The translations under genes and the position numbers were made by a program. A stretch of DNA of 64,000 bases. Origin: an uncultured delta proteobacterium. GTDB taxonomy: Bacteria > Desulfobacterota > Binatia > Binatales > Binataceae. Under the pieces are notes generated by a model that worked only from the letters and a program-made list of their open reading frames with translations, had not been told where the DNA came from and made no database searches. Below, piece after piece: positions 3,278-63,513 of this stretch. Position 1 is the first letter of the stretch. Each line of letters begins with the position of its first letter. Location: contig CAWEEQ010000004.1 of NCBI GenBank assembly GCA_963808235.1, forward strand, positions 781,084 through 845,083, in the 5' to 3' direction.

Positions 3278-4348
3278 TTACCGAGTCGCCGATTGCGCCG
3301 GGCTGGCCGGCGCCGCGACCGTGAAACTCCACTCGTAGAGCTTGTCGGCTTCCTTCAACGCGACCTTGTAATGACCGGGCGCCAGCGGTTCGCGCGGAAT
3401 GATCACCGCCGCGCCGATCGCTTTGAGACCTTCCTTGCCAGTCGTGGTCTCTTGCGTATCGCGGCCATTATATGACGCCGCCGTGATGAGGCATGTTTCC
3501 AGCTCGACACCATCGCGCGAAACGAGATTCGACGAAACTTCAAGACTGCCATCGGCGCCATATCCTTCGCCAAGTTGAATCGAAATCGGCGCGCCAGTCG
3601 GCGCTTTGTATCCGGGGCACGCCGTCAATGGATCGGGATACTCGCCGCCCGGATACGATTGCCAATCTATAGTGGCGCCGTTGGGCGGAAATTCGACCGC
3701 CGCTTTCAATCGTCCGGTCTCTGCGGGGATTAGCCCAAGCCCCGGATTCCAAAGTCGATCGCTTGCAGGTCCGTCGTAGAGCTCCAGGCGCACCGACTTC
3801 TCCAACCCGTACCGGCCCGGAATCACGATTGCGCATTCTCCAGAATCGCAGTAAGCGCCAAGTCCAACCAGCGAGAACTGCGGGACCATCGCAGTCAGGC
3901 CGCTGAATGGCATCGCCAGCAGGCGATCGACAAATTCGGCCCCGCTCAGATCGATCTGGCGCGCATTCAGGATTACCGATCTCACGCCGGCTGACGCGCC
4001 CCTGTCGCTGTAGAACGGCTTTCCCTTGATCTCAAACTTTGCGGGTTCCTGCCGAACTTGAATCTGCAGCTTCTGTTTGTCGAGAACGATATCGCCGCCG
4101 CCAATCCCATTTTTGACCAGGTAGCGCGCGTGATCATACGCGCCCGCGCTCAGCGCGCTGTCATCGACGACCGGCGGCAGCTTCGCCATCGCGCGATAGT
4201 AGTTCAGCCGCGCGTTGGCACTCGAGGCGAAATCGGCCAGCGCGCCCGACGATGCCGGGTCCGTCTGCGCGACGGCAAGGCTCGTCGCGAAAATCATTGC
4301 GCCACCGGCCAAAACGGCAAACTTGAAGTATCGCATGAAGTATCGCAT
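3278..4348 (-). CDS. secreted protein with N-terminal CAP/SCP-like domain
   Basis: 356 aa; signal peptide FKFAVLAGGAMIFATSLAVAQT; ARLNYYRAMAKLPPVVDDSALSAGAYDHARYLVKNG resembles the CAP (YkwD-like) domain; the C-terminal two thirds could not be assigned. Confidence 0.5.
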   Translation of the reverse strand: MRYFMRYFKFAVLAGGAMIFATSLAVAQTDPASSGALADFASSANARLNYYRAMAKLPPVVDDSALSAGAYDHARYLVKNGIGGGDIVLDKQKLQIQVRQEPAKFEIKGKPFYSDRGASAGVRSVILNARQIDLSGAEFVDRLLAMPFSGLTAMVPQFSLVGLGAYCDSGECAIVIPGRYGLEKSVRLELYDGPASDRLWNPGLGLIPAETGRLKAAVEFPPNGATIDWQSYPGGEYPDPLTACPGYKAPTGAPISIQLGEGYGADGSLEVSSNLVSRDGVELETCLITAASYNGRDTQETTTGKEGLKAIGAAVIIPREPLAPGHYKVALKEADKLYEWSFTVAAPASPAQSATR

Positions 4349-49884: not shown

Positions 49885-50718
49885 ATGAAGCGGCTCAGAC
49901 GCCCAAGAAAGCGAATTTTGGATGCTTCCGCCAGTCCGCCGGTGGAAAAGCCCTTGGAAATTCAGGCCCTTTTGAAGCTCTTTCCGACCCTCGAATCCGA
50001 AAAACTCAAACGGCTGGCCGGCGAGATGTCGTTGGTGCGATTCAAACGAGGCGATCGCATTCGCGTCGACACCCAGTCATCGACGGACGTACTGGTGGTT
50101 TTGAAGGGAGCGATCGCGATCACCTGGCAGCACGACAGCCGCCATCAGGTGCTGGTCACGATGCTCGCGCCGGGAGAAATGTACGCGGTTTCCACGCTGC
50201 TACCCGAGATGGCGCAAGGCCTGAAAGGCTGCGCATTCACCAGCAGCCTGGTAGCGACGATCGATTCGAAGAGGCTGGTGGAGATAGTTCTCGGCGTCGG
50301 GCTGGGAGCGTTCAAATCAGCGATGGAAATGACGGTTGGATGGTCGGCCGAAACGCTCATGCGATACATCAAGATGTTTCACATGGCGCCGCGCGATCGT
50401 CTAGTCATTGCGCTGATCGAGATGGGCGCAAAGTTCGGCGTGCGTGACTCGAGAGGCCTCATTCTGAATTTGCCGATGACTCAGAAGGACCTGGCCAACC
50501 TGCTGGGCGCATCGCGGCAAAAGGTCAACGCATACCTGGGCGAACTGGTGCGCATGGGAGCGGTGATCAATCTGAGCCGGCAGATCGTTCTGGTTCCGGA
50601 CAAGCTATTCGCGTTGGTCGGCGATCCCGATGTCCATTACTACAGCGCGCCGCACAAGCATTCGGTTGCCAAACCGCACGACCTCTCGTCGCATTCAAGA
50701 CGCGAGATGCATCTCTAA
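49885..50718 (+). CDS. Crp/Fnr-family transcriptional regulator
   Basis: cNMP-binding-like beta-roll (FKRGDRI...VLKGAIAI) and C-terminal HTH TQKDLANLLGASRQKVNAYLGELVRMGAV. Confidence 0.8.
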   Translation: MKRLRRPRKRILDASASPPVEKPLEIQALLKLFPTLESEKLKRLAGEMSLVRFKRGDRIRVDTQSSTDVLVVLKGAIAITWQHDSRHQVLVTMLAPGEMYAVSTLLPEMAQGLKGCAFTSSLVATIDSKRLVEIVLGVGLGAFKSAMEMTVGWSAETLMRYIKMFHMAPRDRLVIALIEMGAKFGVRDSRGLILNLPMTQKDLANLLGASRQKVNAYLGELVRMGAVINLSRQIVLVPDKLFALVGDPDVHYYSAPHKHSVAKPHDLSSHSRREMHL

Positions 50719-51860: not shown

Positions 51861-52622
51861 ATGCCAAGTACTCTACAATGCAATGCTAACCTTCACGTCG
51901 CAATTATCATGGATGGCAACGGACGCTGGGCCACCAGCCGCCGTCTGCCGCGCTCCGCTGGCCATCGCGCAGGCATCCAGGCGGTGCGCGCAGCGGTCGA
52001 GGCGGCGTTCGACTTCGGTATCAAAACGCTCACCCTGTTCGCCTTTTCCTCCGACAACTGGCTGCGACCTCGGGACGAGGTCAAGTCGCTGATGTGGATG
52101 CTTCGCGGCTACCTCCGCAGCGACACGCGCCGCTTCATCGAGAGTGGCTCGCGCGTGGTCGTGATCGGCCGCCGCGACCGCTTGCCGGCGTCCATCCGCG
52201 CGGAGATCCGTCGAATCGAACGCGCGACTGCGCACGGCCGACGCCTTACGGTGCGAGTCGCAATCGACTACTCCTCGCGGGATTCCATACTGCGGGCCGC
52301 ATCGAGGCTGCCCGCGGGGCGACTCTGGTCGCGCGAGGATTTCGCGCGCTTCCTGGTCGAGCCGCCTGCAATCGCCGATACCCGTCCGCCGCTCGATAGC
52401 GAGGTTGACCTGCTTATCCGAACCGGTGGCGAGCAGCGGCTTTCCGATTTCATGCTGTGGGAATCGGCGTACGCGGAACTGCTTTTCAGCGATCTGATGT
52501 GGCCCGAGTTCGGAGCCAACGAGCTCAAGTCGGCGGTTGAAGAGTTTCATCGCCGCGAGCGGCGCTTCGGAACCCTCATAATTTCCAAACCCAACGCGGC
52601 CTTCGCGCCAGGAGAATCATGA
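51861..52622 (+). CDS. uppS: isoprenyl transferase (undecaprenyl-diphosphate synthase)
   Basis: [55 protein letters not shown] are the cis-prenyltransferase signatures. Confidence 0.92.
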
Positions 52623-53852: not shown

Positions 53853-55274
53853 ATGGCAGATCGGTCGCGATGGCAGATTCCGGTTACAACGGTACCCGCA
53901 ATCGTACTTGTGTTGCTTGGTTACGATGGCTTGAACTCGCTCATTGGGGGAGCGCAGGCGATCGTTCCAACGCTGACTTACGTTTCAACATCGAATGGCG
54001 CGACCTTTTTCGTATCTCTTGATGGCAGAGATTCGGGGGCGGGTAGCTCGGGTTCTCCGTGGCGGACGATTCAAAAAGCGGCCGACACGTTGCAGCCCGG
54101 GCAGACCGCGATAGTAGCGGCCGGCAACTACGGCGAGCGGGTGGAGATTTCGCATTCGGGGACGCGGACGGCTCGGATCACATTACGAGCCGCGAGCGGT
54201 GCGGACGTTCAGCTCCTGGGCTTCGATCTTACCGGAAGCAACTGGGTGCTGAGCGGGTTTGATATCTCCACCCGCAGGAACGGGCGCCAGGGCTATGGGA
54301 TCCACGTGTCCGGTTCGGCCTCGCACGACATTATTCAGAACAACTACATCCATGAACTTTGCCGCGAGGGGATTTTCATGGAGTCGGGAGTCTCGTACAT
54401 TTCGGTTCTCAACAACCGCATCTGGCGGGCCGAGATGGCGGGTGCGCAGGTCGACGGCACCGACGACCTGATCGAAGGCAACGAAGTCTGGGGAACTCAG
54501 CAGGAGCCGGTCCGGGCCGGTGGAATCTATTCGGGATGCGTAACGCCCGACGGCGCCGACGCGGACGCGTTCCGCTTCTTCGGGCAGCATAACGTGTTCC
54601 GATCCAACTACGCGCACGACGTCTACACCGCGTTGCCGACCAACCCCGATCCGCATACCGACTGCTTTCAGACCTGGGGCAGCACCGCGATGAAGGTGGA
54701 CGACATCCTCATCGAGCGAAACGTCTGCCGCTGGCCGGTCGCGTCGACCAAGGTGGACGCGTCGACCGCGATGATCGAGGGAATCGACGGGCCGGTGGGA
54801 ACAGTGACCTTCCAGAACAACCAACTGTCGAATATGCGGCAGGGGATTGTCGTCGGGAATAAGGTCGAGGCGCTGAAGATCTACAACAACACCTGGGACC
54901 ACATCGTGGAAGAAGCGCTGATCTTCAACGACACGAGATCTCCTGCCGACGAGATCATCAACAATATTTTCTATGACGTCGGCGCTGGCGGCGATGCTTA
55001 CGCGTCGGTTCCGAGCGGCAGCCCGCTCTTCCGGAGCAACGTCTTCTACATGCCGGGCGGTGCCAGCGTTGGCACTTATCCGAGCGTGGAGCCCTATACA
55101 AGCGTCGATCCGAGGTTCGCCAACCCCGGCGACTCGACCGGTGCCGGCGCCGATCTGCATCTCCAGGAAAGCTCGCCGCTCAAGCGCTCCGGGGTAACGC
55201 TTCCCCAGGTTACCGATGACTACTACGGAACCAGCCGCGCCGGTGCGGCGTACTCAGTGGGTGCCGCGCGATGA
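53853..55274 (+). CDS. secreted right-handed parallel beta-helix protein (module-family gene A)
   Basis: Signal/anchor VTTVPAIVLVLLGY. FFVSLDGRDSGAGSSGSPWRTIQKAADTLQPGQTAIVAAGNYGE is a DUF1565/pectate-lyase-fold entry. Repeated N..I....G turns follow. A GTG at 53811 is an alternative start. Confidence 0.72.
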   Translation: MADRSRWQIPVTTVPAIVLVLLGYDGLNSLIGGAQAIVPTLTYVSTSNGATFFVSLDGRDSGAGSSGSPWRTIQKAADTLQPGQTAIVAAGNYGERVEISHSGTRTARITLRAASGADVQLLGFDLTGSNWVLSGFDISTRRNGRQGYGIHVSGSASHDIIQNNYIHELCREGIFMESGVSYISVLNNRIWRAEMAGAQVDGTDDLIEGNEVWGTQQEPVRAGGIYSGCVTPDGADADAFRFFGQHNVFRSNYAHDVYTALPTNPDPHTDCFQTWGSTAMKVDDILIERNVCRWPVASTKVDASTAMIEGIDGPVGTVTFQNNQLSNMRQGIVVGNKVEALKIYNNTWDHIVEEALIFNDTRSPADEIINNIFYDVGAGGDAYASVPSGSPLFRSNVFYMPGGASVGTYPSVEPYTSVDPRFANPGDSTGAGADLHLQESSPLKRSGVTLPQVTDDYYGTSRAGAAYSVGAAR

Positions 55275-55508
55275 TTGTCACTATGGGGACACCGTCGCGC
55301 GCAGTCGGCCGTGGACGGGCAGACCGGTTGCGCGATCCCTCATGTGTCAGGGGCGTAGCCTCTCTGCGACAGTTTGTTGCACCTTCCGCAAACAAGGAAC
55401 CAGTTGTCTTAGTGAGTTGTAGCGAATCACTACAACGCGCAACGGCACATTTCGTGCTCCGCAGACTTGTTGGATTCTCGCGTCGCTTTAGGTTGATCGG
55501 GTTCGCAT

Positions 55509-55583
55509 CGGAGCGTTGCTGTCGCTCCGGTGCGGACCAATTCAAAGCTCCAGCCGGAGCGTTGCTGTCGTTCCGGCGCGGAC
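55509..55583 (+). repeat. two copies of a 29-bp hairpin-forming direct repeat
   Basis: cggagcgttgctgtcgctccggtgcggac (55509-55537) and cggagcgttgctgtcgttccggcgcggac (55555-55583). Each folds as CGGAGCG-TTGCTGT-CG(C/T)TCCG. Confidence 0.85.
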
Positions 55584-55721
55584 GGAAACAAACGGAGCGC
55601 GCCGGCAAATGCCCCGCGCTCAGGGGAAAAGGAGTGCGACACTGATGTATCGGTAACTTGCGATGGAGTGCTGTCCATCGCAGGTACCGATCCCACATTG
55701 CACCAAAGCGTTTTTAAGTCA

Positions 55722-55755
55722 GGCGCCACGTGTTGCCTTTAGTGATCGTGGCGTC
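55722..55755 (+). promoter_or_regulatory. conserved 5'-UTR stem-loop upstream of gene B (second copy at 58031-58064 upstream of gene C)
   Basis: GGCGCCACG-[tgttgcctttagtgat]-CGTGGCGTC versus GGCACCGCG-[tgttgcctttagtggt]-CGTGGTGCC: a 9-bp stem kept by a compensatory G-C to A-T change and wobble swaps. GGGGGAG RBS follows. Confidence 0.55.
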
Positions 55756-55772
55756 GGGCTTGGGGGAGAAAA

Positions 55773-57860
55773 ATGGCAACAGAAAAGGCCTTGGGCCTGC
55801 GCAGGCTAATCCTTGTCGCGGCGATCGGATTTCTTCTGATCCTGCTCGGTCACAGCCGGGCATACGCTGCGAGTCCCATCCACATTAACAAACCGGCACC
55901 CGACTCGGTCGTCTCCGACTTGGTGACCACGCTGGTTCGGGTCAAGCCGAAGGTCGCCAAGATAGTTTTCATGCTCGATGGCAACCCGCTGTCGACCACT
56001 ACCTCAACCAGCTTCACCTGGAATTCGGCGACGGTTGCGAACGGGATGCATACCATCGCCGCCAGCGCCTACTCTTCATCCAACCAGTTGCTGAAGACGG
56101 TCACCGAGCAAATCAGAGTTGCGAACAAAAAACCTCCTCCGCCGACTCGTACTCCGACGCCAACCTCCACGCCGACGGCCACCCCGGTGCTTTCGTTCGT
56201 GTCTCCGACCAGCGGGCAGACGCTCAGCGGATCGATAAGCGTCGCGCTGTCATTCTCGAGCCCACCATCGCAAACCAACCCTGGCGCGGTTTGGTGGACC
56301 GAATTGTCCGTCGACGGTGCACCGGTGGTTTCCGGATACAACAATTTGCCCTGGGACACGACCACGGTCGGCAACGGATCGCATACCTTGCGCGTGGATG
56401 GTTACGCGTACAACGGGACAACTTCGATCGGCAATGCGACCATCAACGTGACGGTCAACAACTCGGGCGTAACCGCAACTCCGACGGCTTCATCGACGCC
56501 CACGATCGGCCCGACGCCGACCGTGACCGCTACACACACGGGCACCCCAACCACCGCTCCGACGCCGACTGCGACACGAACGGCGACTCCGACTCTCGGC
56601 GCGACACCGACTGCGACGTCCACCCTGCACGCGACCCCGACTGCGACGTCAACGCCGGGCGGATGCGTCAGCATCACGGCACCGGCTCCCAGCGCGACCG
56701 TCAATGGCATCGTGGCCATCAACACTAACGACACTTGCTCAGGCGCCTGGTTTGAATCGCTCTACGTCGACGGCGCGCATGTTTCCGACTTTCCGGTCGG
56801 ACAGATCATGTTCACGAGCACTAGCTACGCCAACGGGATGCACACCATCCAGGTGACCAGCCAGAGCACCAATCCGGGTTCGGTCCAGCTTGGCAGCGCG
56901 TCCGAAGCGTTGAACGTGCAGGCGGGTTCGGCGACCAAGACAGCCACCGCGACGCCTACCACGAAGCCGAGCGCGACGCCGACGCCGGGAGGGGGCCATT
57001 ACTCAATGATGGGACCCGGAGCGTCTCTGCCGAGCGAAGCGGCTTGCGTCAGCGCGGTGAACGCGTCGCCTATTCCGGAGAACGCGCCGTGGAACCAGGA
57101 CGACGGCACCGGCTTTAACTCGAATCTGCCTCCATCCGGCGGTGTGCCGGCGTACTTCTACGCCAACGCGCCGTGCTGCAACGAATTGCCGCATGCGGAT
57201 TTTGCCAACGTCGACGGAAACTATTCGGGCTCCACAGATGACCTCATCCGAATCACCGCCTGCAAGTGGGGTATCGACGAAGACTACGTGCGCTCGCAGG
57301 CGTGGATCGAATCCGATTGGCATCAGGACTGCTCCGCGGCGCATGGCGGCTCCGACTGTCAGGAAGGCGGCGATATGGACAGCCCGAGCGGCGATCCGTC
57401 AGGCCTGGCGGTCACTTCGATATCGCCGGGAGGCGTATTCAGCGCCTTCAACGGATTTGGAAATCCCGGCGGCCCAACCGATCACTGGGATTCGTGGAGC
57501 ATCGTTCAGACCAAGGTGTACTACGAGTGGATGACGTGGCCGATGATGGAGGAGTCCACGCCTTTCGGGCTCGATTTTCGCTACGCGGAGATGCGCGGTT
57601 GCGTCAACGGCGATCAATATAGCTACTACAATAGCCAGTCATCCGCGCAGGGCACTGACTATCAGAATGCCGTCAATGCCGCCCGCAACAATCCGAACGG
57701 AGCATCGGCAGTCACAGGCTGGACCAACCTTCAGTACCTTTCGTACGGATGCATCGACACCCACTTTTCCGGCGACTGGTTCAACGGCACAGCCGACAGC
57801 TATCTGAACGAGTTCCTGAACAGGTTGGCAACCGCACCGTGGCCGGGCGGTCTGCAGTAG
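55773..57860 (+). CDS. secreted multidomain protein: 3 Ig-like modules, Thr/Pro linkers, Cys/Trp-rich C-terminal domain (gene B)
   Basis: Signal peptide ...LLILLGHSRAYAA. Three roughly 90-aa modules end in ...NGMHTI/NGSHTL... Linkers are TPTPTSTPTATP-type. The C-terminal roughly 310 aa contains AWIESDW ... WSIVQT and is otherwise unassigned. Confidence 0.7.
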   Translation: MATEKALGLRRLILVAAIGFLLILLGHSRAYAASPIHINKPAPDSVVSDLVTTLVRVKPKVAKIVFMLDGNPLSTTTSTSFTWNSATVANGMHTIAASAYSSSNQLLKTVTEQIRVANKKPPPPTRTPTPTSTPTATPVLSFVSPTSGQTLSGSISVALSFSSPPSQTNPGAVWWTELSVDGAPVVSGYNNLPWDTTTVGNGSHTLRVDGYAYNGTTSIGNATINVTVNNSGVTATPTASSTPTIGPTPTVTATHTGTPTTAPTPTATRTATPTLGATPTATSTLHATPTATSTPGGCVSITAPAPSATVNGIVAINTNDTCSGAWFESLYVDGAHVSDFPVGQIMFTSTSYANGMHTIQVTSQSTNPGSVQLGSASEALNVQAGSATKTATATPTTKPSATPTPGGGHYSMMGPGASLPSEAACVSAVNASPIPENAPWNQDDGTGFNSNLPPSGGVPAYFYANAPCCNELPHADFANVDGNYSGSTDDLIRITACKWGIDEDYVRSQAWIESDWHQDCSAAHGGSDCQEGGDMDSPSGDPSGLAVTSISPGGVFSAFNGFGNPGGPTDHWDSWSIVQTKVYYEWMTWPMMEESTPFGLDFRYAEMRGCVNGDQYSYYNSQSSAQGTDYQNAVNAARNNPNGASAVTGWTNLQYLSYGCIDTHFSGDWFNGTADSYLNEFLNRLATAPWPGGLQ

Positions 57861-57877
57861 TCGGCGAAAACGAAACA

Positions 57878-57914
57878 GTTGGGGGCGACTGGATACTCAG
57901 TCAGCGCCCCCAAC
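57878..57914 (+). terminator. GC-rich hairpin after gene B (candidate terminator, no U-tract on + strand)
   Basis: gttgggggcgact-ggatactc-agtc(ag)cgcccccaac, 18 nt after the stop. A second hairpin aaatgtc-actgtgga-gacattt lies at 57914-57935. Confidence 0.45.
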
Positions 57915-58082
57915 AAATGTCACTGTGGAGACATTTAGATAGTCAATAACGATAGTCAGAACCAGGCTGGAACGAGGTCCGATAGTAGGCGCTGGCTGTA
58001 GATTGCCGGGGAATTGGGTTTTTTAAGCCAGGCACCGCGTGTTGCCTTTAGTGGTCGTGGTGCCGGGCTTGGGGGAGAAAAA

Positions 58083-60323
58083 ATGGCAACGGAAAAGGCC
58101 TTGGGCCTGCGCGGGCTGCCGCTTGTCGCGACGGTCGGACTGTTTCTTATGCTGCTCGGTCACGGCCAGGCTTACGCGGCGGGTCCCATCCACATTAATG
58201 CGCCGGCCCCGGACGCGGTCGTCTCCGACATGGTGACGACATTGGTTCGGATCAAGCCGCAGGTCGCTCGGGTAGTTTTCCTGCTTGACGGCAACCTGTT
58301 GGCGTCGACTTCGTCCACCAGCTACACGTGGGATTCGGCGACGGTTGCGAACGGTATGCATACCATCGCGGCCAGCGCCTATACTTCATCCAATCAGTTG
58401 CTGCGCACTGTCTCCGAGCGAATCAGGATTGCGAACAAGCATAAACCGACTCCAACCCCCACTCCGACCACCACGCCGACTGTTACTGCCACTGCCACGA
58501 CCAACCCCACACCGACCGCGACTGCCACCTCGACACGGACGAGGACTCCAACTGTCACCGCGACGACGACCGCGAGTGCCACTGCGACACGAACGGCGAC
58601 TGCGACTGGGACACGAACGGCGAGCCCGACCCCGACTGCGACGTCAACGCCGGGCGGATGCGTCAGCATCACGGCACCGGCTCCCAGCGCGACCGTCAAT
58701 GGCATCGTGGCCATCAACACCAACGACACTTGCTCAAGCGCCTGGTTTGAATCGCTCTACGTCGACGGTGCGCATGTTGCCGATTTTCCGGTCGGACAGA
58801 TCATGTTCACGAGTACGAACTACGCCAATGGAATGCATACCATCCAAGTGACCAGCCAGAGCACCAATCCGGGTTCGGTCCAGCTTGGCAGCGCGTCCGA
58901 AGCGTTGAACGTGCAGCCGGGCGCCACGGCCACGCCGACATCAACCGCGACGCCAACGGCGACCTCCACATCGACTTCGTCGGTCCAGCCGACCCCGACG
59001 GCCACGTCGACGCCCAACGGCTCGACGTTCTACGTATCGCCAACCGGTAGCGACTCGGCGTCTGGCAGTTCGGGCTCACCATGGCGCACGATTCAGAAGG
59101 CAGCGGACACGCTGCTGGCGGGACAGACTGCGATCGTATCGGCAGGCAACTACGGCGAGCGCGTCTCGATCTCGCGCTCCGGCACGTCGTCCAGTCCGAT
59201 CACCTTGCAGGTCGCAAGCGGTGCGGATGCCCAACTCCTCGGCTTCGATCTCACAGGCAGCAACTGGGTTCTGGACGGCTTTGACATCTCGACCCAGACC
59301 AATGGCAGCGAAGGGTACGGGATCCACGTAGACGGTTCGGCCTCGTATGACACGATTCAGAACACCTATATCCATGAACTCTGCCACGAGGGCATTTTCA
59401 TGGAGTCAGGGGTCTCGCACATCTCGGTGCTGAACAACCGCATCTGGCGGGCCGAGATGGCAGGTGTGCAGGCCGATGGCGTGTACGATCTGATCGAGGG
59501 CAACGAAGTCTGGGACACTCAGCAGTATGCGATGAATGCGGGTGGAATTTACTCGGTGTGCACGATTGCCGGCGGCGCCGATGCGGACGCGTTCCGCTTC
59601 TTCGGCCAACATAATGAGTTCCGTTCTAACTACGCACACGACATTTACCACGATATGCCAGGCGATCCGCATCCTACCAATCCCAATCCTCACACCGATT
59701 GCTTCCAAACTTGGGGGAACTCTGCAATGACGGTGAGCGATATTCTATTTGATCGCAACCTTTGTCGCTGGCCAGGAACTAATCAATTTCAGCTTGCAAA
59801 TATAAATTCTACAACGCTTGCAAACATTGGGGTTAATGAAGGCGCAGTAACTAACTTAACCTTTCAAAACAACATACTCTCCAATTCAGGACAGGGAATA
59901 GATATTGAAGGTGGCGTTGGTCCAGTAAACGCTTATAACAATACTTTTGTTCATATAGCGCAGGAAGGATTAGTTTGTAATGGCGCTCGTACATCAGCGG
60001 ACCAGATCATGAACAACATTTTCTACGATGTTGGCGATGGTGGTGATTCGTACACTTCAGGCTGTCAGAATTCAACATTCAATAATAATGACTTCTACAT
60101 GCCGGGCGGCGTCAGCGTCGGCACCTATCCGAACGTCGAGCCGTACCTGAGCCTCGATCCGTTGTTCGTCAACTTCGGCGACGCGACCGGCGGCGGCGGG
60201 GATTTCCATCTGCAGTCCGGCTCGCCGCTAAAAGGCGCCGGGACCACGGTCTCGACCGTCACCAATGACTACTACGGCACCAGCCGGGTGGGGGCAGCAT
60301 ACTCAGTCGGCGCCGCTCAATGA
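58083..60323 (+). CDS. secreted multidomain protein: 2 Ig-like modules, Thr/Pro linkers, beta-helix domain (gene C)
   Basis: The N-terminus is colinear with gene B (MATEKALGLR...). The second Ig-like module is nearly identical to module 3 of gene B. The C-terminal roughly 440 aa is colinear with gene A (STFYVSPTGSDSASGSSGSPWRTIQKAADTL...). Confidence 0.75.
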   Translation: MATEKALGLRGLPLVATVGLFLMLLGHGQAYAAGPIHINAPAPDAVVSDMVTTLVRIKPQVARVVFLLDGNLLASTSSTSYTWDSATVANGMHTIAASAYTSSNQLLRTVSERIRIANKHKPTPTPTPTTTPTVTATATTNPTPTATATSTRTRTPTVTATTTASATATRTATATGTRTASPTPTATSTPGGCVSITAPAPSATVNGIVAINTNDTCSSAWFESLYVDGAHVADFPVGQIMFTSTNYANGMHTIQVTSQSTNPGSVQLGSASEALNVQPGATATPTSTATPTATSTSTSSVQPTPTATSTPNGSTFYVSPTGSDSASGSSGSPWRTIQKAADTLLAGQTAIVSAGNYGERVSISRSGTSSSPITLQVASGADAQLLGFDLTGSNWVLDGFDISTQTNGSEGYGIHVDGSASYDTIQNTYIHELCHEGIFMESGVSHISVLNNRIWRAEMAGVQADGVYDLIEGNEVWDTQQYAMNAGGIYSVCTIAGGADADAFRFFGQHNEFRSNYAHDIYHDMPGDPHPTNPNPHTDCFQTWGNSAMTVSDILFDRNLCRWPGTNQFQLANINSTTLANIGVNEGAVTNLTFQNNILSNSGQGIDIEGGVGPVNAYNNTFVHIAQEGLVCNGARTSADQIMNNIFYDVGDGGDSYTSGCQNSTFNNNDFYMPGGVSVGTYPNVEPYLSLDPLFVNFGDATGGGGDFHLQSGSPLKGAGTTVSTVTNDYYGTSRVGAAYSVGAAQ

Positions 60324-60372
60324 TGGGCGCGGAGGAGATCGAAGATAGTCAATAGCTATAGTCAGAATCAGT

Positions 60373-61695
60373 TCAGAGCGACGTCCGGTAATAGTGAATC
60401 GATTGCCGCAACCCGCCTCCGAGGCGGGTGCGGATGTACCCCAGCATCTCATTCGTCAGCAGGTACTTGGGGCGCAGATAAACGCCGCCATTGTTGAGCG
60501 AGAACAGGATGCGGTGGAATTTCCAGTTGTTGAAATTGCGCAGCAGCCGGAACCGCGCCGATACTCCCAGCGTCTGTATCCCGAAAGGGAACTTGAAGCC
60601 AAACCAAAGCGGCTGAGAATTGATCGCCAGGTCGGGCTCGGTCGAATTGTCTATTTCCTCGAGCGAACCCTCCGCCAACCTGAACCTGACCGTCTTGTCG
60701 AGGTCGGGTATCTGAATAGTCACTGGACGGAGCATCCGTAGCAGGAGCATCGAGTATTTGTCGCGCATCTGCGCGGCAAGACCGTCGTAAGCGGCAACAA
60801 TTTCAGGCATCGATTTGCTCTCGACCGGATCGTACGTGCGCTCATCGACGCTCGGCAGTTGATCGAATCGCGTCAGCGCATCCGACGAATCGTGTTCGGC
60901 GCCAACTTCGTAGATATCCCCCGGATACAGCACCACTGCGCGCTGACCTTGGCGGCTTAAATAATTGGCGGCGTCGCGCGCGGAATTCGCAAAATTATTG
61001 ACGTACTTGTTGTCGAGGCTCGAAAAGTAGATGAAGCTCGCAAACGGGATTGTCGCTTTCGCATCCAGGCCGCGATGCACTGAAGATACATTTTCGAGAA
61101 TCTGCGCAGCTCGCTGCGGCAGAAATTTCTCATGCGGCTCAAAGCCGGCGTAGGCGGCCAGCGAGAACTGATTAAGGAGAACATCGACGCGTCCGATGTC
61201 GTGCAGGATGCCCTTGCATTCGCCGGCGCTGATGCGTGCGTCGTTGGCGTTGAAGATGACTTGTCCTTTACTCAGTACCGCCAGCGCGGAGTCCATTATC
61301 CCGGCGTGATAGCAATATACTTTCGTCGCATCGGGCTTGCTGCTCAGCGATACGATCATCCGATGCGGCAGCCGCTGAAATCGCTCATAGCCAAGCTTGC
61401 GAAACGCCGCGAACATCTTTGTGTAATCGCGATCCTGAAAGAGGATCGTCACCCGCGCTTTGAAGTCAGCCGGAAATGATCCGAGGGTCGGGAAGTGACA
61501 ATGATCGGGATGCTCGTGCGAGATCCAGATGTACTCGACCTTGTCGAGCACCGCCTGGTCGAACTTTGGTTCCGGCAGCAGAGTCCATGAGTCGTTGAAA
61601 ATTTTTCCGAATAGCCAGGGATCCATCAGGATCGACGTGTCGGCGCATTCCGCGACGATGCATGCATGTCCGACAAAGTGAATTTTCATGAGCAC
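60373..61695 (-). CDS. MBL-fold metallo-hydrolase with long C-terminal extension (paralog 1)
   Basis: 440 aa; KIHFVGHACI...DPW...IWISHEHPDHCH (HxHxDH). The roughly 300-aa C-terminal part has no family I can name. Confidence 0.65.
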   Translation of the reverse strand: MLMKIHFVGHACIVAECADTSILMDPWLFGKIFNDSWTLLPEPKFDQAVLDKVEYIWISHEHPDHCHFPTLGSFPADFKARVTILFQDRDYTKMFAAFRKLGYERFQRLPHRMIVSLSSKPDATKVYCYHAGIMDSALAVLSKGQVIFNANDARISAGECKGILHDIGRVDVLLNQFSLAAYAGFEPHEKFLPQRAAQILENVSSVHRGLDAKATIPFASFIYFSSLDNKYVNNFANSARDAANYLSRQGQRAVVLYPGDIYEVGAEHDSSDALTRFDQLPSVDERTYDPVESKSMPEIVAAYDGLAAQMRDKYSMLLLRMLRPVTIQIPDLDKTVRFRLAEGSLEEIDNSTEPDLAINSQPLWFGFKFPFGIQTLGVSARFRLLRNFNNWKFHRILFSLNNGGVYLRPKYLLTNEMLGYIRTRLGGGLRQSIHYYRTSL

Positions 61696-62109: not shown

Positions 62110-63513
62110 GTGAAAGTGACCCTGGTTTCGCATGCTTCGGTGATAATTGAGTCACAAGGAGTCAGAATTTGGACTGACCCGTGGCTCACGGGCAAAGTCT
62201 TCAATGAATCGTGGTCGCTGTTTCCGCCGGCGGCATTTGATCCTGCGATGCTTGATTCGATCGACTACCTGTGGATTTCGCACATTCATCCGGATCACTT
62301 CCACATTCCAAGCCTGAATTCGCTTTCCCCGCAGTTCAAACGCCGGGTCAAGGTCCTGTTCCAGGACAATCACGCCGATCAACTTTTCGAAGTGATGAAA
62401 AAGTGCGGATACCAGAACTTCCAGGCGCTGCGGCATCGCCGGATGGAGTCTCTCAGCGAGCACACGTCAGTCTACTCCTACAGCGCCGGGACCCTGGATT
62501 CCTGCCTGGGCGTGATGGAGCCGGAAGGGGGCTTGTTCAACATCAACGACTCGCGGCTGAATGCGACCGATTGTCGTCGTGTGAAGTCGGACATGGGGCG
62601 GATAGACACGGTGCTGAGCCAGTTTTCGCTGGCGGTCTATAATGGTCTTCAACCGCGCGAATCTCATCTGCGCCGCGGCGCGGCGGCGATGTTGGAAAAG
62701 ATTTTCGATAATCACGCGAACCTGGGCGCCCGGATCACGATTCCGTTCGCGAGCATGATGCGTTTTTCGCTGGTCGACAATCGTTACATGAATGCATTTG
62801 CGAACCGTCCGCGCGACGTGTGGGAACATGCCGCCGTACGAGGTCTCGGGGTGGCGATCCTGTTCCCGGGCGACACTTACAATTCATCCACCAGCTACGA
62901 TTCGACCCAGGCGCTTGAAAAATACGACGCGGTCTACGAGACCATCGACCAGTTTCCCTACGACACGCCGGCGGCGGTCCCGCTGCAGCCGATCGAAGAA
63001 GCTTTCCACGAGATGGTACGCCATTTGCGTGAAAAGTATCCCGCGCCGATACTTCGGATGCTGCGCGGGGTGGTGGTGAAGTTGCCCGACCTCGACAAGA
63101 CCGTGGCGTTTTCGATTCCGGCCGACTCCTTCAGCGAAGTCGATTCGTCAGAGTCGCCCGACATCTTGATGTGTTCGCAGGCCCTGCATTTTTGTTTCTT
63201 CCGTCCGTACGGGCTGCAGACGCTCTCGAGCTCGGCGCAGCATACCGTGGTGCGCAACCTGGCGAATTGGCGGATCCATCGCGCGCTGTTCGCGCTGAAC
63301 AATGCGCAGGCATACGGCCGACTCCGCTATCTGCTTCGCCGCGACACCATAAGTTTTTTCGCGAAAAGAATTAGAGCCATGGTCCGTTACACCGACCTCA
63401 CCCACGCCCGGCTCAGATATCCGTACAGCTATAAGCCAAAGCATCACTCCAGCATCCCAACTGAGGCGGGGCAGGTAATGGGTCCGTTGGATCGATCCGG
63501 GCATTCGGAGTGA
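62110..63513 (+). CDS. MBL-fold metallo-hydrolase with long C-terminal extension (paralog 2)
   Basis: 467 aa, GTG start; KVTLVSHASV...DPW...LWISHIHPDHFH. Colinear with 60373-61695 over the whole length (LNQFSLA / LSQFSLA, IPFAS, PDLDKTV). Confidence 0.65.
   Translation: MKVTLVSHASVIIESQGVRIWTDPWLTGKVFNESWSLFPPAAFDPAMLDSIDYLWISHIHPDHFHIPSLNSLSPQFKRRVKVLFQDNHADQLFEVMKKCGYQNFQALRHRRMESLSEHTSVYSYSAGTLDSCLGVMEPEGGLFNINDSRLNATDCRRVKSDMGRIDTVLSQFSLAVYNGLQPRESHLRRGAAAMLEKIFDNHANLGARITIPFASMMRFSLVDNRYMNAFANRPRDVWEHAAVRGLGVAILFPGDTYNSSTSYDSTQALEKYDAVYETIDQFPYDTPAAVPLQPIEEAFHEMVRHLREKYPAPILRMLRGVVVKLPDLDKTVAFSIPADSFSEVDSSESPDILMCSQALHFCFFRPYGLQTLSSSAQHTVVRNLANWRIHRALFALNNAQAYGRLRYLLRRDTISFFAKRIRAMVRYTDLTHARLRYPYSYKPKHHSSIPTEAGQVMGPLDRSGHSE

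Follow-up and report, generated by a model that had tools for sequence, protein, structure and literature searches.

In this study we describe a short tract of near-identity between two neighbouring genes in a stretch of 64,000 nucleotides (nt) from an uncultured delta proteobacterium of the Binataceae (assembly GCA_963808235.1, contig CAWEEQ010000004.1, positions 781,084 to 845,083 of the forward strand). This whole stretch is called the window, and coordinates are positions within it, on the plus strand, unless stated otherwise. The two genes, B (55773-57860) and C (58083-60323), lie in tandem on the same strand and encode secreted modular proteins of a Binataceae-type bacterium, and the third immunoglobulin-like (Ig-like) module of B is almost identical to the second Ig-like module of C. 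This near-identity probably arose by layered ectopic, non-reciprocal homologous recombination (interlocus gene conversion) between copies that lie 1995 bp apart. We directly observed the tract, its bounds, the pattern at its synonymous sites and a similarity within the genome that exceeds the similarity between orthologs.

Results

A near-identical tract with sharp bounds

Positions 56632-56921 of gene B align without a gap to positions 58627-58916 of gene C, with 12 differences in 290 nt (95.9% identity). The two copies are in direct orientation and the offset from B to C is 1995 nt. In B the tract comprises the last 8 codons of a Pro/Thr (PT) linker and the entire third Ig-like module (Ig3), and in C it comprises the end of a linker and the second Ig-like module, which is homologous to the third module of B. 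A sequence-only reading of the window had reported such a tract with only 12 differences, and the ungapped alignment bears this out. Its coordinates needed correction: B 56634 pairs with C 58629 and not with C 58628 (MAFFT needed an end gap), and the real start of the tract lies two bases earlier, at 56632.

The edges of the tract are sharp (56631/56632 and 56921/56922), with dense mismatches directly outside both ends. The differing positions in B are 56726, 56742, 56774, 56784, 56789, 56819, 56822, 56824, 56834, 56837, 56843 and 56852, all of them in a central segment of 127 nt (56726-56852; C 58721-58847). To its left lies an identical run of 94 nt (56632-56725; C 58627-58720) and to its right one of 69 nt (56853-56921; C 58848-58916). 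The left run starts within the final copy of a tandemly repeated 30-nt unit of the linker (repeats at 56571-56650 in B and 58556-58630 in C), and the right run extends up to the final codon of the module, beyond which the next linker begins. Identical ends had been claimed for both sides; the head agrees with the claim (94 nt, or 92 nt if counted from 56634, against roughly 95), whereas the tail had been put at roughly 85 nt and measures 69. The PT-linker DNA upstream of the tract in B (56469-56631) is tandemly repetitive and C- and A-rich (GC skew -0.29, TA skew -0.36). It aligns poorly with the corresponding linker of C (58443-58626) and forms the left bound of the homology.

The step in identity against the older N-terminal homology

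Genes B and C share a second, older block of homology (55711-56176 in B, 58020-58480 in C) that comprises the 5' leader, the signal peptide and the first Ig-like module (Ig1). Its nucleotide identity is 81%, rising to 90% over the 63-nt leader, and its synonymous divergence (dS) is 0.41. The count of 13 differences in the first 75 nt that had been reported for this part is exact if counting begins at the start codons ATG 55773 of B and ATG 58083 of C. Leader, signal peptide and Ig1 together show 74 differences in 425 positions versus 12 in 290 in the tract (Fisher p=1.9e-8), and a maximum chi-square scan placed the breakpoint exactly at the junction of the two blocks, with none of 2000 permutations reaching as high a value (p<0.0005). 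Hence the profile is not uniform, and the sharp step that had been proposed from the sequence is confirmed by both tests. A 3' flank shows about 72% identity between B and C by BLAST.

Part of this step is due to stronger purifying selection on the module, which exaggerates what is visible. The nonsynonymous divergence (dN) is 0.014 in the module versus 0.146 in signal peptide plus Ig1, and dN/dS is about 0.1 (in the plus-strand frame) versus 0.36.

The older block has a history of its own. Relatives were sought by a protein search, a genome scan and a metagenome scan, which gave 120 protein hits, 9 genome loci and 16 metagenome loci. Within the window the two copies of the N-terminal block are 81.9% identical, versus 63-76% identity to each of the seven relatives compared. 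Because the block is more alike within the genome than to any of these seven, it appears to have been homogenised as well, at an earlier time.

Only the edges of the tract are young

All 12 differences in the tract (9 synonymous, 3 replacement) fall into the central 127 nt, and such confinement has a probability of p=0.0006 under a uniform model and of p=0.004 given the sites that are variable in the family. In this centre the proportion of synonymous differences (pS) is 0.33, dS is 0.44 and dN is 0.03. The edges, together 163 nt with zero differences, hold at most 1 synonymous difference in about 44 synonymous sites. Homogenisation thus reaches the synonymous sites at the edges and not those of the central 127 nt, and only the 94-nt and 69-nt edges are really young.

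It might be argued that the homology is of a single age, stemming from one duplication or one old conversion of the module together with the N-terminal block, and that the step reflects stronger purifying selection only. The centre fits this well, its pS being indistinguishable from the 0.31 of signal peptide plus Ig1 (Fisher p=1.0), and so does the tenfold lower dN of the module. Orthologs, too, show a slower Ig3: between the window and the soil-metagenome contig L011 dN is 0.10-0.11 in Ig3 versus 0.30 in signal peptide plus Ig1 of gene C. What such an account does not explain is the edges, where about 14 synonymous differences would be expected (P ~1e-6) and which differ from the centre with Fisher p=4e-5. 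Nor are the edges conserved in other pairs of modules. In L011 the B and C modules differ at 9 of 62 positions on the left, 29 of 127 in the centre and 15 of 69 on the right, so that the edges are as variable as the centre. We therefore consider a single age very unlikely.

Paralogs in the window are more alike than orthologs

Four related contigs (L011, L012, L013 and L014) carry the same gene cluster as the window, and L011 has the complete arrangement of a gene A, upstream of B, followed by B, C and two metallo-beta-lactamase genes. Over the same 258 aligned nt, the third module of B and its counterpart in C are 79.5% identical in L011 (dS 0.78), 87% in L013 (dS 0.27) and 95.3% in the window. 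Compared with the modules of L011, L012, L013, L014, L009 and L007, those of the window show 79-83% identity. The module is not unusually conserved between orthologs: dS between window and L011 is 0.60-0.62 for Ig3, 0.63 for gene A, 0.79 for the second Ig-like module (Ig2) of B and 0.91 for the C-terminal domain of B, and orthologs of the two loci are in general about 74-85% identical, except for a near-identical stretch in C.

In neighbour-joining trees the two window modules were monophyletic in 100% of the bootstraps (99.8% with the centre alone), whereas the groupings expected from orthology (window B with L011 B and L014 B; window C with L011 C) were found in 0%. Because the paralogs are more alike than the orthologs, the window copies were probably homogenised inside this lineage after the lineages had split, that is, by gene conversion or concerted evolution. 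Set beside 8 related modules, the 12 variants are for the most part private to one of the two window copies and not shared with the B- or C-type modules of relatives. In L011, L012 and L013 both genes carry the Ig3 module in corresponding positions, and in L014, whose contig ends within the first module of C, it is present in B; the module probably pre-existed in both genes.

A second rival explanation is an artefact of assembly or polishing, in which reads mis-mapped between similar modules, or a chimera of strains, would have homogenised the deposited copies. In favour of it, the source genome is of metagenome type, and other assemblies of relatives break or switch haplotype just upstream of C. 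Yet a collapse predicts perfect identity, and the copies retain 12 differences, 9 of them synonymous, with intact frames. A typical read is longer than the identical runs of 94 and 69 nt, which have unique sequence on both sides. In addition, a raised identity of the paralogs (87%) was found independently in L013, and an artefact cannot account for the older block with its 81% identity. An artefact thus seems to us similarly improbable.

It could also be that one gene recently gained the module from the other by copy-paste, through domain shuffling at the linkers. Module content does vary among relatives: gene B has Ig1-Ig2 in L002 and Ig1-Ig3 in L007, L009 and L013, its first module in L011 is of another kind, and C-type beta-helices are paired with Ig2 instead of Ig3 in P0005 and P0022. 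This explanation is difficult to reconcile with the shared position of the module in B and C of L011, L012 and L013, and a single recent copy-paste predicts uniform near-identity rather than a centre with a pS of 0.33, which makes it highly improbable. Finally, a functional element at the nucleotide level (an RNA, an antisense gene or a binding site) kept in both copies is almost certainly not the explanation, for although antisense open reading frames overlap both copies (56739-56999, 58807-59082) and weak terminator-like matches lie on the minus strand (56747-56730, 58742-58725), there was no Rfam match in 55500-60500 (E<=1), the 7 terminator-like matches are a small excess over shuffled sequence (mean 4.7, sd 1.9), orthologous modules are only about 80-83% identical with a dS of about 0.6, which speaks against constraint at the DNA level, and dN/dS in the plus-strand frame is about 0.1.

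A proposed layered history of gene conversion

Gene conversion between the two genes, which we prefer, probably proceeded in two steps. An older homogenisation, at a synonymous divergence of about 0.3-0.45, would have affected the leader, the signal peptide, Ig1 and the Ig3-type module once this lineage had separated from that of L011. Later, one or two recent events would have left the outermost 94 nt and 69 nt of the module free of differences, their tracts extending to the end of alignable homology in the repetitive linker DNA. As an alternative to the second step, a single heteroduplex of 290 nt might have formed, with its centre restored by mismatch repair. We infer a RecA-type conversion mechanism, and likewise how many events there were and in which direction sequence was transferred.

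Several observations weigh against this history or blur it. The synonymous step over the module as a whole (pS 0.13 versus 0.31 in signal peptide plus Ig1) is significant only moderately (p=0.009), and within the module a Sawyer-type test for the longest concordant run gave p=0.28, which is not significant. The identical flanks show the same distance to the B-type as to the C-type modules of the relatives, so donor and recipient are not distinguishable. No relative in the set searched (120 protein hits and, from genomes and metagenomes, 9 and 16 loci) came closer than about 80% nucleotide identity in the Ig modules, and for this reason the events can be neither dated nor polarised.

The sequence-only reading had interpreted the tract as a recent recombination or conversion of a single module. 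Its preference for recombination or conversion over uniform divergence holds, and the outgroups add support to it. Recent and confined to a single module is too simple a description, since constraint accounts for much of the step, only the edges are young, and the N-terminal block would have been homogenised too.

Genes and domains of the locus

Gene A (53853-55274) encodes a secreted right-handed beta-helix protein of 473 aa (Pfam Beta_helix, DUF1565). It is an old paralog of the catalytic part of C, with a dS of 1.48 and about 70-75% nucleotide identity. The product of B (695 aa) is identical to the public protein P0076; the proteins of both A and B are identical to public proteins encoded on a 3.85-Mb NCBI/ENA contig, and the nearest named relatives are metagenome-assembled genomes (MAGs) of Candidatus Binataceae. 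In gene B a signal peptide is followed by Ig1 (Big_7), a PT linker, Ig2 (Big_7), a second PT linker, Ig3, a third PT linker and a C-terminal domain of 291 aa. Gene C (746 aa from ATG 58083) starts with a signal peptide and Ig1; a PT linker separates Ig1 from the Ig3-type module, and a second PT linker leads over to a right-handed beta-helix domain paralogous to gene A. The C-terminal domains of B and C are unrelated to each other. As start of C, ATG 58083 is most likely the true one rather than the upstream TTG 58014, because the latter falls into a leader that is homologous to the untranslated leader of B and ends in the same Shine-Dalgarno sequence (GGGGGAG in both genes).

Modules 1 and 2 of B exceed the threshold of Pfam Big_7 (PF17957) with 31.2 and 26.1 bits (gathering threshold 24.1), and module 3 on its own stays below it (14.9 bits, E=0.043, profile positions 3-70). 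Aligned by hhalign to the module-1 and module-2 sequences of the window and its relatives, of which the window's own pass the Big_7 threshold, module 3 gave a probability of 97.6% (E=3.9e-12, 84 columns). An AlphaFold2 (AF2) model of module 3 is all-beta at low confidence (pLDDT 55), and a Foldseek search of the PDB with this model returned nothing meaningful. Because the model is of low confidence and the Foldseek search uninformative, the Ig-like status of module 3 rests on the hhalign result.

The C-terminal domain of B (56985-57857) is Cys- and Trp-rich and 60-88% conserved across Binataceae-type MAGs (L002-L010, L011-L026). Where upstream sequence is present in the locus, it usually stands directly 3' of at least one Ig-like module. 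The 291 aa had no match in Pfam, NCBIfam or PDB sequences, and an AF2 model built from 8 sequences was unusable (pLDDT 40). It is thus an uncharacterised domain family.

C is directly followed by a divergent pair of paralogous genes with a metallo-beta-lactamase fold (Lactamase_B_3; 60373-61695 on the minus strand, 62110-63513 on the plus strand). The pair is syntenic in the L011, L013 and P0002 contigs, and in the P0002 contig a GT2 glycosyltransferase gene comes next. Upstream neighbours include genes for an undecaprenyl-diphosphate synthase (51861-52622) and a Crp-family regulator (49885-50718). This neighbourhood suggests a context of cell-envelope or exopolysaccharide processing.

Leaders and small repeats

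The leaders of B (55711-55773) and C (58020-58082), which are 90% identical, both contain a stem-loop just 5' of the Shine-Dalgarno sequence GGGGGAG, and the same stem-loop was seen in the leaders of B- or C-type genes of 7 related loci. RNAalifold predicted 11 pairs, 5 of them with two-sided compensatory changes (for example CACCACG/CGTGGTG to CATCACG/CGTGATG). The stem-loop had no match in Rfam; it may act as a regulatory or stabilising 5' hairpin.

Three kinds of small repeats were noted around the genes. A 52-nt element (AGATAGTCAATARCKATAGTCAGAA...) lies 3' of both B (57937-57988) and C (60343-60394), at 79% identity. The palindromic motif TGTCAC-N5-GACA occurs after the stop codon of A (about 55276) and again after the terminator hairpin of B (about 57920), which reads GTTGGGGGCG...CGCCCCCAAC. 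Between A and B (about 55500-55600), 5' of the B leader, a direct repeat of about 28 nt (GGAGCGTTGCTGTCGYTCCGGYGCGGAC) is present twice, about 60 nt apart.

Recombination and module swapping in the wider locus

The near-identical stretch in C mentioned above lies in its beta-helix domain. Positions 59482-60085 match L011 (6833-7436) and a further soil-metagenome contig, L001, over 604 nt with 8 differences (98.7% identity), with shoulders that reach over 59085-60400; the rest of the locus is about 75-85% identical to these two contigs. For the beta-helix domain as a whole dS between window and L011 is 0.18, versus 0.6-0.9 in neighbouring genes. From this contrast the 604-nt stretch appears to have been imported recently, through homologous recombination between distinct lineages.

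Among the relatives, L011 and L012 are 100% identical over genes A and B (about 5 kb), and from the end of B through the leader, signal peptide and first modules of C the identity is 70-75% (L011 5200-6170, L012 6980-7942). Contig L001 and a 97-kb JGI contig both start at the point of this drop, where either strains have recombined or chimeric assembly is especially frequent. In L011, L012 and L014 module 1 of gene B cannot be aligned with the Big_7-type Ig1 of the window (L011 about 3320-3790, window 55869-56132), and in L011 its translation looks like that of a different kind of beta-sandwich module. In L013 the third gene encodes a beta-helix of the A type (75% amino acid identity to A) and not of the C type. 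B- and C-type genes appear to have swapped modules and catalytic domains repeatedly among lineages. Because of the import in C, the drop between L011 and L012 and the variable module content, recombination seems to be generally active at this locus.

Discussion

Homogenisation of gene copies within a genome is known from several bacterial systems. In Salmonella, the two chromosomal copies tufA and tufB are homogenised non-reciprocally as well (PMC5485169), and by analogy the layered history proposed here would match the description of the tuf genes. The case differs from tufA/tufB in several points. Here one internal module and an older N-terminal block are homologous in genes that are otherwise unrelated, the homology is bounded by repetitive linker DNA and not by the ends of the genes, and the copies are arranged in tandem, 2 kb apart.

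A closer parallel in terms of protein architecture is given by polyketide synthases, where paralogous modules of multimodular proteins likewise group by genome and not by orthology, and where conversion is associated with compositionally skewed repeat DNA, the so-called GRINS (PMC8256042). GRINS are defined as regions of more than 500 bp with more than 80% identity and mean absolute GC and TA skews above 0.15 (PMC8256042). Our tract is shorter (290 nt; together with the linkers the BLAST repeat spans 488-491 nt per copy at 82% identity) and less skewed (GC skew -0.08 to -0.09, TA skew -0.09 to -0.10), and only the PT linkers exceed the skew threshold (GC about -0.29, TA -0.36 to -0.48). Unlike polyketide synthase modules, the modules involved here are small and Ig-like, and the secreted proteins to which they belong have beta-helix domains predicted to act on glycans.

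With concerted evolution of paralogs in general (PMC2720389, PMC4530459), the window shares the homogeneous stretches and the within-genome similarity above ortholog similarity. We see no difference in kind; the window adds an instance that concerns a single domain in an uncultured soil lineage.

Programmed cassette variation of the pilE/pilS or vls kind was considered and rejected, as it would require silent, promoterless donor cassettes that feed one expression site, and both copies here are part of complete genes. Leader, Shine-Dalgarno sequence and signal peptide are present separately in B and in C, and B is also followed by a terminator hairpin of its own. No further copies of the module were found in the 64-kb window.

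A more far-reaching idea is that Ig-like modules of the Binataceae, bracketed by tandem-repeat linker DNA, might serve as exchangeable cassettes and that the locus might be a dedicated diversification hotspot. We regard this as rather doubtful. If it were true, the linkers would be recombination-prone boundaries, and modules and catalytic domains would be repeatedly swapped and homogenised among neighbouring genes. Such exchange would take place even between lineages that are about 80% identical, for example in the 604-nt, 98.7% identical import in C.

In conclusion, the tract is a real but ordinary case of bacterial gene conversion or concerted evolution, a kind of event that is well established. 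It opens no new question and serves mainly as a caution and a small case study. An apparent step in identity can combine three components: constraint by selection, homogenisation of an older date and short conversion tracts of very recent origin. At such loci assemblies from short reads are prone to breaks or to a switch of haplotype. For the organisms themselves it means that single domains of modular secreted proteins in uncultured soil bacteria can be homogenised between neighbouring genes, and for this reason the trees of such domains depart from those of the genes and the species.

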